This document shows, in pieces, positions 12,931-64,000 of a stretch of DNA of 64,000 nt. This DNA is from Shigella phage Shfl2: the sequence record HM035025; one strand, 5' to 3'. Positions within the stretch are counted from its first letter, which is position 1. Each line of letters opens with the position of its first letter. Made by a program: the position numbers and the translations under genes. The notes beneath the pieces were generated by a model. That model did not search any database. It was not told the DNA's origin and saw nothing but the letters and a program-made list of their open reading frames with translations.

Positions 12931-13401
12931 CTAGCGATAAAAACCAAAATAACGATTAGTTTCAATAATCTTTCTTTCTTCTTCTGACATTCTCCAGCGT
13001 AGTCCAACATCAAAATGAGCCCAGACCATCTTAACAAATGCATTTATATCTTTAATATCTTCAATAATGAATGTTTTACTTTTAGAAGGTTGACTCGCTA
13101 ATTTAACTTTATCGTCTTCAAACAGGTCAAAAAGACCATATTCATGAGCTCTTTTATAGCCTTTAATAGTTAAAGCTTCAGAAGAAGAAAATGGTGAATC
13201 AGTATTCTGCAAAATATCTTCAGTATGTTTTATAATTAGAATAACATTTTCTGGATATTTTCTTTCTTTTATATCTTTAATTAAAAGATCCGGATTTTCT
13301 GCTAAAGGAATAATTAATGAGCACTTTTTATCAAGTGTATTTACTGATTTACCTTCTTTGGACATAAATTCTATTGAATAATGTTTTGCTACTTCAATCA
13401 T
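12931..13401 (-). CDS. hypothetical protein
   Basis: 156 aa ORF. Confidence 0.45.
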
Positions 13402-13546
13402 GTGATTTCCTCTTGCCTACTAATGGGCCGTCAGGAATTTTGTTTTCCTGGATATATTTCTCATTTTCTTCCATCATTTTACTGCCAATTTTAAGAAGCA
13501 AATCCAATGCTTCATTTGCTTTAGCCTTGGCCTCTTCTAGCGTCAT
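13397..13546 (-). CDS. hypothetical small protein (49 aa)
   Basis: Hand-translated [50 protein letters not shown]; stop overlaps the next start in an ATGA arrangement. Confidence 0.35.
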
Positions 13547-13554
13547 ATCTCTGT

Positions 13555-13758
13555 TCACGATTTATCCCCATAGATGTCTCTCATCAATTTAAGCGCTGAG
13601 CGTTCTAATTTCTTTTCTTTCTCAGCACTAATCATTGATTTCATCCATTCTTCTGATTCGTTCTGCATTTCTTTATTTGCTTGTTCAACCCAACCATCAT
13701 CAATGTACATTGAGTTTGGTCTACTGAACCATTCAAGCATTTTCTTCAGAACTTTCAT
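13555..13758 (-). CDS. hypothetical small protein
   Basis: 67 aa ORF. Confidence 0.35.
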
Positions 13759-14230
13759 TTGTTTTACCTAAAACAACAGTAGGAGCATCATCAAATTCAT
13801 GAATTTTTAGCAAATTTGGATGTAAACTATTCCATACAGAAGAAATAAAGTATGATAAAGCATCTTCACTCACAATTATAAATTTATTTCCTTTATCTAT
13901 TTTCCAGCTATATACTGAATCATACGAATAGAAAGATAAAGGTTTATCATTATATTGTTCTGCGCTAACATTAATGTATTCGGATTTAGTAAATGCTTCA
14001 ATTGCTCTAAACGGAATATTTGGTACAGTTTCAATAATTCCGATCTTTTTAAGTTTTATTTCAGCATCTTCTGGAACTGGCATTGAAACAAAATTTTCTA
14101 CGAGATACATTGGGTCACAATAACCCTTATCAATCATTACTGCTACGGTAATTGGAACGTCTTTAGCAAACGACATACTATTACTGCTAATATACATTTC
14201 AAACAAAATCGCTTCCATAATTTTCCTCAA
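13733..14230 (-). CDS. hypothetical protein
   Basis: 165 aa ORF. Confidence 0.45.
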
Positions 14231-17355: not shown

Positions 17356-17520
17356 TTACTCTTCTTTTTCTTTAGATTCCTCTTTTTTCTTTTTAGGAAT
17401 CTGTTCAGGACCTTTATTTACTATAGCACCTGACGTTGTTCCAGTGGAGATATTTTCAGGATTACCACCTGAATCTCCAGCTACCATATCTTCTTTGATA
17501 AATTCTTTATATGTTTTCAT
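17356..17520 (-). CDS. small acidic/lysine-rich peptide with capsid-targeting-sequence-like N-terminus
   Basis: Hand-translated MKTYKEFIKEDMVAGDSGGNPENISTGTTSGAIVNKGPEQIPKKKKEESKEKEE; GAGG SD; first 10 residues resemble the T4 internal-protein CTS MKTYQEFIAE. Confidence 0.4.
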   Translation of the reverse strand: MKTYKEFIKEDMVAGDSGGNPENISTGTTSGAIVNKGPEQIPKKKKEESKEKEE

Positions 17521-22692: not shown

Positions 22693-23541
22693 TTAATCAA
22701 CTGCTATTGGATGAATAGCATTAAACTTATGAAATGCTTCTGATTTTTCTTTACGCGAAACACACATGCGAAGAACCTTTAATGGCTCGTCTTCTTCACC
22801 CAACGATTTTCGTTTTTCAATATTAGAAGTTTTCCAACGAGCTTGCTCTGGAAACTCTCTATTGATTTGCTCAAGCGCTCTATTATGTTTAGAATTACTA
22901 CGAATTGAACTGCACCCGCCAGGAGCTTGTGCTTTTCCAGATACAACCAGATATTTGAACAAGGCCAAATGCGGATAACCTTGATTAATTAAATTGAGAA
23001 ATGCATACATATCTTCACATAAATCAATTTTTCCATACCCAATTTGTTCTGTCGTAAGTTTTCCGAGGTCATACCATGTATTCGTGAATCCATATGAATT
23101 TTCACGATAATTACCCCAAGATGAAGTAATTTTAAAAATAGGTAGACGAGCATGGCCATGATAATACCCACAATCCATGGCATCTTCAACGTATTGAATC
23201 AATTCATAGAACTGTTCACGAGTCAATTGATTGACTTTATCCACACAACGACGATCATCTCTTTTTCGCATTGAACTCATACGAATAGTAGTATCATCAT
23301 CAATCATCCAGATTCGTTGACCTGCATACATATCAGTAATTGCTTTACGAGTACCAGCAATTCCATTAACATCATCAGGAATAGTTATAATTTTAGCTCT
23401 AGACCCGTAAGCGTCATAATAAGCTTTTTCTTCGTGTTCACGTACTACAATATGAGGTTCATAATCAGATGGAAACATATCAAGGGCAGAAACTGCCCCT
23501 ACGCGTTGATAGCTTGGAATTACGAATTGAATCATTTCCAC
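22693..23541 (-). CDS. GT-A-fold glycosyltransferase at the beta-gt locus (likely HMC-DNA glucosyl modification)
   Basis: 282 aa with IDDD (DxD) motif; unlike T4 beta-gt in length and sequence; position between uvsX and 42. Confidence 0.55.
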   Translation of the reverse strand: MEMIQFVIPSYQRVGAVSALDMFPSDYEPHIVVREHEEKAYYDAYGSRAKIITIPDDVNGIAGTRKAITDMYAGQRIWMIDDDTTIRMSSMRKRDDRRCVDKVNQLTREQFYELIQYVEDAMDCGYYHGHARLPIFKITSSWGNYRENSYGFTNTWYDLGKLTTEQIGYGKIDLCEDMYAFLNLINQGYPHLALFKYLVVSGKAQAPGGCSSIRSNSKHNRALEQINREFPEQARWKTSNIEKRKSLGEEDEPLKVLRMCVSRKEKSEAFHKFNAIHPIAVD

Positions 23542-34922: not shown

Positions 34923-36123
34923 ATTTTGTAATAATGTCAAACTGTTCTTTAAAGCAGAAGCTTGAATCTTGATGCTGATACAAAAATTCATAAGCTTTTT
35001 CGCGTTCACGGTCATAAAGAGCTCGGTCAGATGACAGTTCTTTAATACGTTCAAATGTTGATTCCATGTCATTTTCATCAAACCAAACGATACCGCTATC
35101 ATGTGAAATTAACGGAGTATTATCAACACGGAATTTTAAATTTTCGCCAGTAGATTTCCAAAATACTGGAATTGTTCCACATGCACCGAGCTCGAGATGA
35201 GTATATTCTAAAGAACGTTGTAGATATTTTTTGTCCAACTTACTCAGCTGATAACCAAATCCGGATTTACTCATGCGTTCAAGCATTTCGCTATTTACAT
35301 AACGGTCAAGAATTTGCGTTGGCAAATTAGGAGCAATTTTAATTTGGTCTACTTGATGAAGACGATAATACTCGTATGGAATTCCTTTTTCTTTAATAGG
35401 AATGAACGCTGGAGAACGTTCCAGACCTTCCATAATAGTACTTAGTCCTGCGGGTTTAAGATGTTTTTCATGAAAATCAAACATCTGATAAAAACCTTTC
35501 CATGTAGTCGTACGACCAATCCAACGATTGATATTCATGTTAATTTCAGAAACATCTTTCCAGTAGGTTGACCGAACCTTCGCAATATCCATAGGAGGCT
35601 GAAAGTTATATACGGTCGGTGCTTCTTCAATGTCATCAAACAGAGAAACAGTTTCTGGATACCATTCTTTCATCAGAACTTTATTAAAATCACCATTATC
35701 AGAATGGCTAAAAATAACATCAGCTCGACGAACAGTTTCTTCTAATCCCAAATTTCGGCGCAAAGAAAGAGAAGAATGGTCATGTTGATAAACTACAACA
35801 CGAACAGAAGGTTTAATGTTATCAATAATTTTTTTATAGTTATTAATAGTGTCTTCTTCAACCGAAGTAGCAGGAACTGAATTGATAATTAGAATATCAC
35901 AATCATTTACCAGCTTAAGTGTTTTATCATATTCTTTTGCCAATAAAACCGGAATTGAAAATGATTTATAATCATGCGCACAATTACGAGTAAATGATTT
36001 ATCTTTAGCATAAACCAAAGTTACTTCATGACCATTTTTAATAAACCAATCACGTTGCTCGAGTGAGAATTTTGTTACACCACAACCTTCAAGACCTCGA
36101 GCCATAAAAATACATACTTTCAT
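34921..36123 (-). CDS. agt: DNA alpha-glucosyltransferase
   Basis: 400 aa; starts M[K/R]VCIFMARGLEGCGVTKFSLEQRDWFIKNGHEVTLVYAKDKSF... as T4 alpha-gt. Confidence 0.93.
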   Translation of the reverse strand: MKVCIFMARGLEGCGVTKFSLEQRDWFIKNGHEVTLVYAKDKSFTRNCAHDYKSFSIPVLLAKEYDKTLKLVNDCDILIINSVPATSVEEDTINNYKKIIDNIKPSVRVVVYQHDHSSLSLRRNLGLEETVRRADVIFSHSDNGDFNKVLMKEWYPETVSLFDDIEEAPTVYNFQPPMDIAKVRSTYWKDVSEINMNINRWIGRTTTWKGFYQMFDFHEKHLKPAGLSTIMEGLERSPAFIPIKEKGIPYEYYRLHQVDQIKIAPNLPTQILDRYVNSEMLERMSKSGFGYQLSKLDKKYLQRSLEYTHLELGACGTIPVFWKSTGENLKFRVDNTPLISHDSGIVWFDENDMESTFERIKELSSDRALYDREREKAYEFLYQHQDSSFCFKEQFDIITK

Positions 36124-58983: not shown

Positions 58984-59042
58984 GTTATTCTCCTCTTAAC
59001 TGATAGAAAAATTATACCACAGTCAAGAGGAAAAGTAAACAA

Positions 59043-59363
59043 TTATTCTTTAAATCTAATCAATTTATTCATAGACTTTGAAACTTCTGCACGAACCTCA
59101 TGTAGGTTTTTGAGTTGCTCAAGACGCTGCTCATAGTAAGCAATTTCATCTTCTTCGAGACAGTCCTGTGAATCTTCTTTAAGATAGCGTGCATAATCCT
59201 GGAAAGCGTTACGGACTACTTCCTGGAAGTCATCAAGACTTTGAATTTTCTTAGGAGCAACAGATACACGACGAGGGGCAGTATAATACTCATAACCAAA
59301 CCCTGCGCTTAATTGAGCCATTAATATTTTTCCTCTGGTTGGAACACAGCACGACAAGCCCAC
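59043..59363 (-). CDS. hypothetical protein
   Basis: 106 aa ORF. Confidence 0.4.
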
Positions 59364-59587
59364 ATACTGGCTTCTTTGAGTTTCGTTTTAGCAATAGTTA
59401 ACTGATCGAGGCTTTCAGCATAATTCTTCGCGAATTCACAGTCTTCACAATTATCTAGTGCTTCCCAAAATTCATCGTATAAAGCATCAAAGATAAGTCC
59501 TAAACGAACTTCAGCATCTTTAATAGCATTCACTTTACCGATTTTCTCTTCAGTATGTGGCTTATAACCCTTAATATCTTCAATCAT
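59321..59587 (-). CDS. hypothetical small acidic protein (vs.4-like position)
   Basis: 88 aa ORF. Confidence 0.4.
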
Positions 59588-59801
59588 ATTTTACTTCCTC
59601 ACCAGTACCTAAATCATATTCAACTAAACGAATAGGCTCATGAATTCCATATCCTTGAACAGAAATTTCTGTCGTAGGATAAATTCCGTTAATATCGCCC
59701 ATGTTCCACGCTTCATTAAATTGCTGTTCGCCTGAATTACTAAACCATTCAGCGAAAGCATTTAGCACATCTTCAGAACCTTCAATAATTATCTTTGCCA
59801 T
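59580..59801 (-). CDS. hypothetical small acidic protein
   Basis: 73 aa ORF. Confidence 0.4.
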   Translation of the reverse strand: MAKIIIEGSEDVLNAFAEWFSNSGEQQFNEAWNMGDINGIYPTTEISVQGYGIHEPIRLVEYDLGTGEEVKYD

Positions 59802-60163
59802 TACAGGCTCTCAGTAAAGGTACGAGCGATAACGTCGCGCTGCTGTTCCGGAGTCAGAGAGTTAAAGCGAACTGCATAACCGGATACACGGATGGTCAGC
59901 TGCGGATATTTTTCCGGATGCTTAACTGCATCTTCCAGAGTTTCACGACGCAGAACGTTTACGTTCAGGTGTTGACCACCTTCAATTTTAACCGTAGGTT
60001 GTGTTTCAATTTCAATTTCACGGGCATACAAACCATAGAAAATTTCTGGGTCTACAAAAGAGTCCTCTTTAAAAGTTTTAGAGACAATAATTCTTACTTG
60101 AATACCGTCTTCAAAATAAATAGTACCTTTATGCGTGCCTTCAAGAATTTGATATGCTTTCAT
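59801..60163 (-). CDS. autonomous glycyl radical cofactor (GrcA/YfiD-like), chimeric
   Basis: 120 aa; C-terminal ~65 aa ([59 protein letters not shown]) match E. coli GrcA as recalled, including RVSGY; that part is GC-rich (59805-59995), the N-terminus is phage-like AT-rich. Confidence 0.8.
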
Positions 60164-60170
60164 ATAAACC

Positions 60171-61084
60171 TCAATTAGAAAATAAATTTATCCAAGATTG
60201 TTCTTTAATTAAAAATGGCTCAGAATCATATGCCATTAAACTTTGTGTAATTAGTCCTTTAAAAGGCCCATCAATAAATTCCATGGTAAAATATGGAATT
60301 TTATTCATTAGCCGTGCATTAGGAGCCGTGCACAAAACTCTGCATCCTTTGAATACGCCTTTTTGTAATTTGTATTGCTTAAGATAAAATTCGCTCAAAA
60401 TGTTATTTTTTGCCAAAATTTCAAAATGATTCACCAATTTATTTTTAATAGTTTTTGGCGAAAAATAAAGATATTCGAAAAGTTGCGAATCTGTCATCAT
60501 TGCATTCCAATCACAAAAAATTGAGGACGAGTAATACCACCAATGCAACATTTACTATTGCAGCAGTACTGTACAGTGTCAATATGAGCATCATAAATCT
60601 TATCCATATCAGGAGATTTGACAGGCTCATCAATTATATACAAAATTCGCGAAAGCGATAAACCTCTGAACTTGCTTCCTTTATTACCAATAAAACTGCG
60701 CACAGAATCAGTAAATAAGCGGAATCGAATATCATCATTAGAATAACGCGAAAATTCCTTTTTAATGTTATTTGCAGAAATTTTAGCGTAAGCTGAAGTA
60801 TTAGAAAGAACAATAACTGTTCCGCCATCATACAACCAATTAGCAGCAAAGTTAGTCACAGCAATTGATTTACCGGATTGACGTCCACCATCTAGTCGAA
60901 GTGTACAATACTGTTTAAGTAAGTCTTCAAATGATAGGATATAATCGTTTTTACAAATTTCTTCTACTCTAGCATCAGAATGGTGTGTAAAAGCATTCAT
61001 CAGGATAGATAAGGACCAGTTAAAAATGTTCTCATTTCTTCTCTCTCTAAGTTTGGGCCATTCCATGGCGCATGAATTGTCCAT
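60171..61084 (-). pseudogene. terminase-like P-loop ATPase split into two overlapping frames (possible frameshifted remnant)
   Basis: ORF 60497..61084 has Walker A GGRQSGKS and Walker B ILYIIDEP but no SD and an N-terminus that runs through a leader hairpin; ORF 60171..60551 continues in the -1 frame; overlap contains an A6/T6 run (60515-60520). Confidence 0.35.
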
Positions 61085-61130
61085 TTCTGTATTTACCCAT
61101 TACCGCACTTGGGCTCGACCTTATTACAGG
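61040..61130 (-). repeat. repeated leader element with 9 bp hairpin, copy 1
   Basis: TAAGTTTGGG-CATTCCATGGCGCATGAATTGTCC-TTTCTGTATTTAC-CATTACCG shared with 61690-61770. Confidence 0.6.
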
Positions 61131-61189
61131 TTGGCGGGAATCCCTCACAAAATCATGAGGTCCAGGTTGTTCCCATATTTCTTATTTGC

Positions 61190-61663
61190 TTATTTGAACG
61201 ATTTAACGTACTGAATAGAACCTTTACTATTCACGAAAGCGATTTTACCATTTTTATTATACATGGTAGCAGTACGCTGATAGCCGTAAGTTTGCTTACC
61301 AGATTGATAACCAACTAATGCAAAATTATCTTCACCCATTTTATTCTGTTTAGCGCGAATGCGTTCATGACCATGTGCCATAAGAACCTTAGCATCACCA
61401 GTTGCAATGGATCGACGAGTTTTTTCATCTTCAACTGTATTAACAAAGTCGTCAAATGAATCAAATTTAGCGTGAGATTTATTATACAGTTTTCCATCTA
61501 CTGCATAATTATATCCCTGTACATCCATCTCAACTTCTGTACCATCATCCAATACAGCAGTGATTTTCTGTCCTTTTTTAAATTTCAAAAGATCAGTAAA
61601 AGATTCAGCAATAATTTGAGAATTAATAGCTGCTTCAGTAATAAATTCTTGATATGTTTTCAT
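61190..61663 (-). CDS. internal protein (IP) with capsid targeting sequence
   Basis: 157 aa; starts MKTYQEFITEA, i.e. the T4 IP CTS (MKTYQEFIAE) with a gp21-type cleavage context; body unlike T4 IPII as recalled. Confidence 0.6.
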   Translation of the reverse strand: MKTYQEFITEAAINSQIIAESFTDLLKFKKGQKITAVLDDGTEVEMDVQGYNYAVDGKLYNKSHAKFDSFDDFVNTVEDEKTRRSIATGDAKVLMAHGHERIRAKQNKMGEDNFALVGYQSGKQTYGYQRTATMYNKNGKIAFVNSKGSIQYVKSFK

Positions 61664-61689
61664 GTGTTTCCTTTAAATGTAAATAGTTT

Positions 61690-61770
61690 TATTCTTTAAG
61701 TTTGGGACAATTCGCACGCATGAATTGTCCGTTTCTATATTTATCTATTACCGGGTTCGAACTCGGCTTT
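61690..61770 (-). repeat. repeated leader element with 9 bp hairpin, copy 2
   Basis: GGACAATTC-gcacgcat-GAATTGTCC hairpin and conserved flanks upstream of the ipII-like start. Confidence 0.6.
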
Positions 61771-61771
61771 A

Positions 61772-62350
61772 TTAAGAATTACCACGGGCTGCATTAGCAA
61801 CGGCATACGCGTACTGAACATTAGCGTCTTTAAACGTACCTTTAGAGGTATCTATTTCTGCCTTAAAGCCGCCTTTAGTCATAACATCGGCAAATTCTTT
61901 ACGGAAAGCCATTGCATCAAGACCTTTCCATGATGATTTATGCTTGGCGAATTCAAGACCAGCGTAGTTGACAGCCTTAGCTAATTTATTATCAATAACC
62001 CATTTACCAGCTTTAGGCACAAACTTCGGGCCTTTCTGTTTAGAGAACAGTTTTAAATTCCAGCGGCGAAGGTCACTGTCGGCTTTAACAAAAGCTGCGT
62101 CTAAGTTACTAGCAACAACATCTTCAATATGAGCAAATTTAAGTCCGTCAACTTCAATATTTAGATCGGTACGCCAGCGAAGTCCTTCCCAAGCGAAGGC
62201 TTTAAAATCGGAAGCTTTTGTAGCTAAGTATCGTTCAATAGGGGCTGTTTTAGGGTCAAAGCCGTTTCCTCGGTAAGTCCACTCGTCTTTATTAATGCCT
62301 TTGGCCTTTTCAACAGAAGCTTCAGCGATAAATTCTTTATACGTTTTCAT
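61772..62350 (-). CDS. ipIII: internal protein III-like
   Basis: 192 aa; starts MKTYKEFIAEA (CTS); size matches T4 IPIII. Confidence 0.7.
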   Translation of the reverse strand: MKTYKEFIAEASVEKAKGINKDEWTYRGNGFDPKTAPIERYLATKASDFKAFAWEGLRWRTDLNIEVDGLKFAHIEDVVASNLDAAFVKADSDLRRWNLKLFSKQKGPKFVPKAGKWVIDNKLAKAVNYAGLEFAKHKSSWKGLDAMAFRKEFADVMTKGGFKAEIDTSKGTFKDANVQYAYAVANAARGNS

Positions 62351-62421
62351 GTGTTTCCTTTAAATATTTTAATTAGTAACTGTGAATATACTATCACAGT
62401 TCCAAGAGAAAGTAAACAACT

Positions 62422-63390
<969 letters not shown>

Positions 63391-63409
<19 letters not shown>

Positions 63410-63879
63410 TCAGTGATAAAGTTATTTAAATTTTGAGCATATTTCTTTTCATCAAAAATCTTTTGTTGTCTGCGTAACCGCCATGGCATTTCAATGAACA
63501 TGCGCCATATTCCTGATAATACTGCTACTGTAAAAATATTAACAAGTATAGTTAAAAGAACCCAATCTCCTATTCTGTCCATTGGATTTTTTATAAAAAA
63601 GTAAAATACGAACGATGATATAGGAAGACTAATGATATACCACAGAAGAACCTTCTTATCTGTGAACCAATCAGCATTCGTTAACTTAGCGCGACCATTT
63701 TGAATACACACGAATTTATCATCTGTTACAGTAAATGGCTTAGCTGCTTGATATCCCATTCTAAACTCCCTAATTAATCGTTTCTTTGTATCTTCGGAAC
63801 AACCATTCCAGTCAACTCTATCAACTGGAATGCCATCATCCCCATCATCTAAATCGTACCAGCGAGTTTTTAAAATCAT
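63391..63879 (-). CDS. hypothetical membrane-associated protein
   Basis: 162 aa; central hydrophobic segments. Confidence 0.45.
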
Positions 63880-64000
63880 TTAATTTTCCTGCAATCGCTC
63901 ACAAACTCTTTCATTGATTCATTTTCAATATAAGACATGTAGCTATTATATTCTTTTAATTGTATTTTGTAATCTTTTTTTCTTTGCCAATTTATTTTAA

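Follow-up and report, generated by a model that had tools for sequence, protein, structure and literature searches.

The ip4 locus

The window analyzed here, by which we mean the whole stretch of 64,000 nucleotides from Shigella phage Shfl2 (HM035025), comes from a Tequatrovirus, and over positions 59000-64000 its closest record is phage ECML-134 (95.7%). Toward the end of the window, an open reading frame (ORF) whose product begins MKTYQEFITEAAINSQIIAESF in the ORF listing is set among neighboring genes and repeats, arranged from upstream to downstream as follows.

62422..62916, minus strand: gene e, a T4-type lysozyme and the upstream boundary of the polymorphic locus
61772..62350, minus strand: ipIII, 192 aa, 95% identical to T4 IPIII, the neighboring cassette with a capsid-targeting sequence (CTS)
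61693..61774, minus strand: ipIII-ip4 intergenic junction, with a near-consensus late-promoter box GATAAATA and a hairpin (repeats D1 and D3)
61625..61678, minus strand: shared 5' end of the cassettes, consisting of the ribosome-binding region TTTAAAGGAAACAC, the ATG, and the CTS codons (repeat D2)
61190..61663, minus strand: ip4 coding sequence, an ATG ORF for a 157-aa precursor (the end coordinate takes in the stop codon)
61044..61126, minus strand: repeat of the junction on the downstream side of ip4, where it overlaps the vs.8 homologue at its 5' end
60497..61084, minus strand: vs.8 homologue, 195 aa, P-loop-like, the downstream boundary (86% identity to T4 vs.8 residues 26-219)

Identification of the window ORF as Ip4

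Comparison at the sequence level makes it virtually certain that the window protein is Ip4, the named internal head protein of T2- and K3-type phages. The entire product (residues 1-157) matches positions 1-158 of Pfam profile DUF7412 (PF24183) with an E value of 5.7e-96 and 319 bits, the curated cutoff of this profile being 27 bits, and PHROG 3155, annotated as "internal virion protein," is likewise matched over the full length (E value of 6e-102). Together with the recovery of Ip4 by tblastn in 469 of 50,697 phage records, these full-length matches establish ip4 as a real gene and not a chance ORF. Copies at least 99% identical to that of the window occur in 289 records (the T2 copy is 100% identical), and about 160 further records hold relatives at 60 to 80% identity, mostly in T4-like phages of Klebsiella and Salmonella, with Serratia phages and others also represented. 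Overall, the family is distributed among phages of Escherichia, Shigella, Klebsiella, Salmonella, Serratia, Erwinia, and Proteus, at identities of 61 to 100%. Existing record labels read "Ip4: internal virion protein" (ime09) and "ipIV: internal head protein 4" (Kha5h), and a Foldseek search of the AlphaFold model against BFVD returned Q38388, "Ip4 [Enterobacteria phage K3]," at 99% identity and a TM score of 0.87. The profile, tblastn, and K3 matches all point to the known Ip4 rather than to a new internal protein (IP); the K3 and T2 proteins have the same length, leader, and locus as the window protein, and we see no difference of substance.

The original prediction had described this ORF as a divergent, CTS-bearing internal protein with a 157-aa body and had suggested that its distinct body implies a distinct target. 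The coordinates that it gave (61190..61663) are exact, MKTYQEFITE↓A stands at the N terminus (the arrow marks the presumptive cleavage point), and the length is right, except that 157 aa describes the whole precursor, leader included, and not the body. The body is neither divergent nor distinct, the protein being Ip4, which is identical in T2 and nearly invariant in about 300 Tequatrovirus records. A comparison with known IP families, which had been proposed as a check, yields a 99 to 100% ortholog of a named internal protein, although not of one whose function is known. The earlier interpretation is thus partly supported, in that the class is right and the function plausible, whereas the protein is neither divergent nor new. 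The window gene is a textbook copy of ip4 that adds nothing new about the target of Ip4, and its practical value lies in its correct annotation as Ip4.

Leader and predicted processing

The Ip4 precursor is divided into three parts.

61634..61663, minus strand: CTS MKTYQEFITE, codons 1-10, ending in the gp21 motif I-T-E↓A, a predicted cleavage point read from the sequence
61604..61633, minus strand: disordered linker, codons 11-20, with another candidate gp21 site, I-A-E↓S, of putative use, at its end
61190..61603, minus strand: predicted mature Ip4 body, residues 21-157, with a mixed alpha/beta fold

Mutagenesis of the IPIII CTS assigned targeting to positions 4 and 7 and processing to positions 8 and 10, with L/I-x-E as the processing motif (PMC9026906). 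The key residues are all intact in the Ip4 leader, which has Y4 and F7 for targeting and I8 and E10 for processing, and placement of the protein in the class of CTS-bearing internal proteins, as originally predicted, is correct. Ip4 contains only two L/I-x-E motifs, at residues 8-10 and 18-20; the body has none, against an expectation of about 0.5 per sequence in a set of sequences that are related to each other. Across 14 members of the Ip4 family, M1, K2, F7, and E10 are invariant, as is E20, and residues 10-19 are predicted to be disordered (pLDDT of <50). The presence of two motifs within the first 20 residues, the invariance of E10 and E20, and the disorder between them suggest that the mature protein begins at A11 or, more likely, at S21.

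Whichever start is used, mature Ip4 would have a computed mass of 15.5 to 16.5 kDa and a pI of 9.1 to 9.3, small and basic like the other internal proteins. The form starting at S21 is calculated at approximately 15.5 kDa, with a pI of about 9.3, a net charge of about +4.7, and 22 lysines and arginines in 137 residues. The internal proteins of T4 are basic and have propeptides of 10 to 19 residues (PMC9026906). T4 IPI* (Ip1), whose structure has been solved by NMR, resembles Ip4 in having a CTS and a compact basic body, and both may undergo N-terminal processing in two steps, IP propeptides reaching 19 residues and that of Ip4 being predicted at about 20.

The body of Ip4 and its relatives

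Full-length Ip4 aligns significantly with T4 IPII (E value of 7e-07), but the alignment is confined to the leader, and its significance is due to that shared leader. After removal of the first 11 residues, the best BLASTP E value was 0.067, and we rejected homology of the Ip4 body to IPII or IPIII; in this respect, the original prediction, which had noted that the body does not resemble IPII, is borne out. T4 IPII nevertheless parallels Ip4 in its leader, in its slot beside ipIII, and in its small basic body, and it is presumably packaged, processed, and injected in the same way, although it is only 100 aa long (versus 157 aa for Ip4) and unrelated in its body.

A word-indexed sequence search recovered 14 clusters, all at least 61% identical to Ip4, and an exhaustive profile search, run against 1.8 billion representatives, contributed just three more relatives (P0015, P0016, and P0017) at 33 to 41% identity. 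These three come from uncultured phages known from metagenomes and have a variant leader, MNF(E/K)(Q/D)FLNE↓S, that contains the same protease motif; in P0016 and P0017, E20 of Ip4 is aligned with another L-N-E↓S. By these profile matches, the Ip4 family reaches into uncultured T4-like phages with a variant capsid-targeting sequence. The exhaustive search, covering 1.8 billion representatives, returned no cellular homologue. A tblastn search of the GenBank phage collection found no isolate phage carrying P0015 or P0016: the matches to P0015 were the Ip4 copies already recovered, at 35 to 39% identity, and P0016 had zero matches.

The AlphaFold2 model of Ip4 (mean pLDDT of 77.5, pTM of 0.72) predicts an N-terminal beta-hairpin followed by three helices and a C-terminal sheet. 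In the Foldseek search of BFVD, the sole significant match to this model was Ip4 itself, no structural similarity to the solved structure of IPI* was detected, and a sequence search of solved structures produced only spurious weak matches. As modeled, the Ip4 fold has no convincing structural relative.

Two histidines, H64 and H99, are invariant in the close Ip4 family and lost in the distant relatives, among which no catalytic-looking residues are conserved and no enzyme-like motif is evident. Because the histidines are lost and an enzyme-like motif is lacking, Ip4 is more likely to be a binding protein than an enzyme, as judged from its alignment. The PADLOC models of defense systems gave no match.

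Cassette structure of the locus

Additional IP ORFs, their 11-aa leader, and their conserved flanks were reportedly first described by Repoila et al. In the window, ip4 occupies the slot between e/ipIII and vs.8 in which T4 has ipII, and the slot is flanked by repeats. The direct repeat D2 (54 nt), which spans the shared 5' end of the cassettes, has a second copy at 62312-62365, ahead of ipIII (87% identity). The 3' junction of about 80 nt (repeats D1 and D3) has two copies, one between ipIII and ip4 and the other downstream of ip4, that are 79 to 88% identical; within the first copy, GATAAATA is located at 61745 and a hairpin of 9 to 10 bp at 61705-61730. PeSL-like elements have been described at IP loci and proposed to have a role in cassette shuffling (PMC2839356, citing Repoila et al., 1994).

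The interval from e to vs.8 (60497..62916) is an array of cassettes, for which Tequatroviruses show at least five arrangements, as follows. The order in T4 is e-ipIII-ipII-denV-vs.8; the window and ECML-134 have e-ipIII-ip4-vs.8, an order found in only 12 records; T2 and Bas43 have e-ip4-vs.8; phiD1 and many others have e-denV-ip4-vs.8; and Bas37 has e-denV-vs.8, without any ip gene at this site. Compared with the usual neighborhood of ip4, the window differs in that ipIII lies directly upstream and denV is missing (denV is absent from the entire 64-kb window). Since Ip4 is nearly invariant and the sets of cassettes differ, variation lies in the presence of cassettes: what varies between phages is the cassette content of the locus and not the sequence of Ip4. 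The Ip4 cassette is also the more widespread of the two that occupy this slot in the window and in T4, with 469 records versus 198 for IPII.

Several minor features adjoin the array. The first 40 or so codons of a T4-type vs.8 are present at 61029..61148 (minus strand; GTG ORF at 61047..61148) in a frame that differs from that of the 195-aa ORF, so the gene has been frameshifted or restarted relative to that of T4; this displaced stretch of vs.8 is the same stretch that is duplicated between ipIII and ip4. Further downstream, the vs.6 homologue (59801..60163, minus strand) has a C-terminal glycyl-radical motif, and related records call it GrcA, autonomous glycyl radical cofactor. A tRNA scan found no tRNA genes in the window, as expected from the position of the tRNA cluster past gene e, an arrangement shared with the related phage KarlGJung.

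Internal proteins with established targets

Internal proteins enter the cell with the phage genome and, hence, act ahead of any phage gene expression, and they determine the host range of T4-like phages, a common ingredient of the cocktails used in phage therapy. The anti-restriction function that the original prediction offered for the window protein is the default hypothesis of the field for CTS proteins, and it has already been partly tested. Ip1 inhibits the GmrSD of CT596, Ip2 inhibits the GmrSD/BrxU of ECOR21, and Ip3 inhibits the two-gene GmrSD of ECOR17, each acting on one GmrSD type without cross-protection (PMC12373910); IPIII is required on ECOR17 and is active without its leader (PMC9391042). 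Bas37_0260, a CTS protein of KarlGJung, inhibits McrBC (bioRxiv 10.1101/2025.11.20.689424), which extends the range of IP targets beyond GmrSD. All four of the characterized internal proteins are inhibitors of type IV restriction nucleases.

Identity of Ip4 with Bas37_0260 was considered and rejected. Translated from the KarlGJung genome (Bas37, MZ501089), Bas37_0260 is an unrelated protein of 77 aa encoded at the ipI locus; its leader (MKTYQEFIAE↓T) and its membership in the injected class are like those of Ip4, but its size, sequence, and locus differ.

Proposed function of Ip4

If Ip4 follows the biology of the T4 internal proteins, its leader would attach the precursor to the prohead's scaffolding core, where the prohead protease gp21 would cut after E10 and probably also after E20. 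Mature Ip4 would then stay in the head in many copies (the T4 virion holds about 300 copies of each of its internal proteins) and accompany the DNA into the cell on ejection. In the cytoplasm, it would bind and block, stoichiometrically and with great specificity, one host nuclease that attacks DNA containing glucosyl-hydroxymethylcytosine.

The window phage has genes for gp42 (dCMP hydroxymethylase) and for two glucosyltransferases, alpha-gt and beta-alpha-gt, and no T4 beta-gt was found in it.

22693..23541, minus strand: beta-glucosyl-HMC-alpha-glucosyltransferase (PHROG 842), flanked by uvsX and gene 42, the position of beta-gt in T4
34924..36123: alpha-gt

The combination of the PHROG 842 gene with alpha-gt leads us to expect glucosylation of the T2/T6 type, and, on this gene content, the DNA of the window phage should contain T2/T6-type glucosylated hydroxymethylcytosine, a substrate of type IV enzymes.

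The reading that we prefer, by analogy, is that Ip4 inhibits a type IV restriction enzyme of a further subtype, as do Ip1, Ip2, Ip3, and Bas37_0260. We propose a type IV target because the characterized CTS proteins, four of four, hit type IV nucleases one to one, and we judge this reading to be about evenly poised between right and wrong. Silas et al. assayed ip4 to ip10 against additional GmrSD variants and observed no reproducible inhibition (PMC12373910). T2 is restricted by the GmrSD of ECOR21 and by that of ECOR17 (PMC12373910), and since T2, which has no Ip2, carries Ip4 and is restricted all the same, these two enzymes are not targets of Ip4. Among the papers searched, none discussed the function of Ip4, and the name "Ip4" occurred solely in the legend of a supplement to PMC12373910. 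Conservation as strong as that of Ip4, with a spread over phages of at least six host genera, is unusual in an arms-race protein and could just as well reflect a housekeeping function in the capsid.

The same conservation bears on the possibility that Ip4 is an injected antidefense protein whose target is not of type IV, such as another fast-acting immune system or a host factor that is common in Enterobacterales. The spread of Ip4 over phages of the genera listed above at 61 to 100% identity suggests that its target is conserved and not an enzyme variant peculiar to certain strains, Ip4 was negative on the GmrSD panel (PMC12373910), and its predicted fold is unrelated to that of IPI* or of any solved inhibitor. 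We nonetheless regard a target outside type IV as unlikely, given that every internal protein with an identified target hits a type IV nuclease and that the diversity of GmrSD is very large, with few subtypes tested (PMC12373910). A bolder version, which we put forward tentatively and consider rather doubtful, is that Ip4 inhibits a widespread and unrecognized first-response defense of Enterobacterales, either a modification-dependent nuclease unrelated to GmrSD or a system that is not a nuclease. A target of this kind would explain both why Ip4 is the broadest and most conserved IP cassette and why the GmrSD panel was negative; if it were real, the orphan fold of Ip4 would represent a new inhibitor architecture and offer a handle for finding the defense in question.

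Ip4 might instead have no host target at all and serve mainly as a structural or physicochemical component, that is, as a basic, DNA-associated head protein that contributes to core assembly, charge neutralization, packaging, or ejection. Its net charge of about +4.7 and its very high conservation within Tequatrovirus are compatible with such a role, as are the slower head assembly and smaller burst of IPIII mutants (PMC9026906) and the contacts that lysines of internal proteins make with DNA phosphates. On the other hand, ip4 is dispensable at the population level, with many Tequatroviruses (T4 and Bas37 among them) lacking it, and the occurrence of other cassettes or none at the same site is typical of a host-range gene of accessory nature; furthermore, charge neutralization would not require a globular body that is folded and conserved, loops included. 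On balance, a purely structural Ip4 seems improbable to us. Least credible, and in our view highly improbable, is that cassette shuffling has left the leader behind as a relic and that Ip4 goes unpackaged and acts only when expressed inside the cell: the CTS codons do lie within the 54-nt repeat, a probable mediator of recombination that could be retained at the level of DNA, and a CTS-like start is also found on the gp61.1 homologue in the window, but the leader residues are kept at the protein level even in relatives of 61 to 70% identity, and the relatives at 33 to 41% keep a variant leader with the same protease motif.

Ip4 is the commonest IP cassette still without an assigned target, the four others having type IV targets, and its target, once found, would probably reveal a defense variant common in clinical Enterobacterales.

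Other ORFs with CTS-like leaders

The window contains one more ORF whose leader is CTS-like (MKTYKEFIKE↓DMVAG...); the rest of its product is a low-complexity tail rich in lysine and glutamate. This 54-aa ORF (17356..17520, minus strand) lies just upstream of the primase gene and is the homologue of T4 gp61.1 (PHROG 1823), which starts with MKTFKEFIKE in T4; we found no mention in the literature searched of an IP-type leader on gp61.1. Two CTS ORFs are also present upstream of the tRNA cluster in KarlGJung/Bas37 (locus 13029..14191), where both carry the annotation "hypothetical" and neither is related to Ip4, even though the second has the same length: bas37_0243 encodes 187 aa beginning with MKTYAEFLTE↓A, and bas37_0244 encodes 157 aa beginning with MKSYTQFLNE↓AVLNE↓A.
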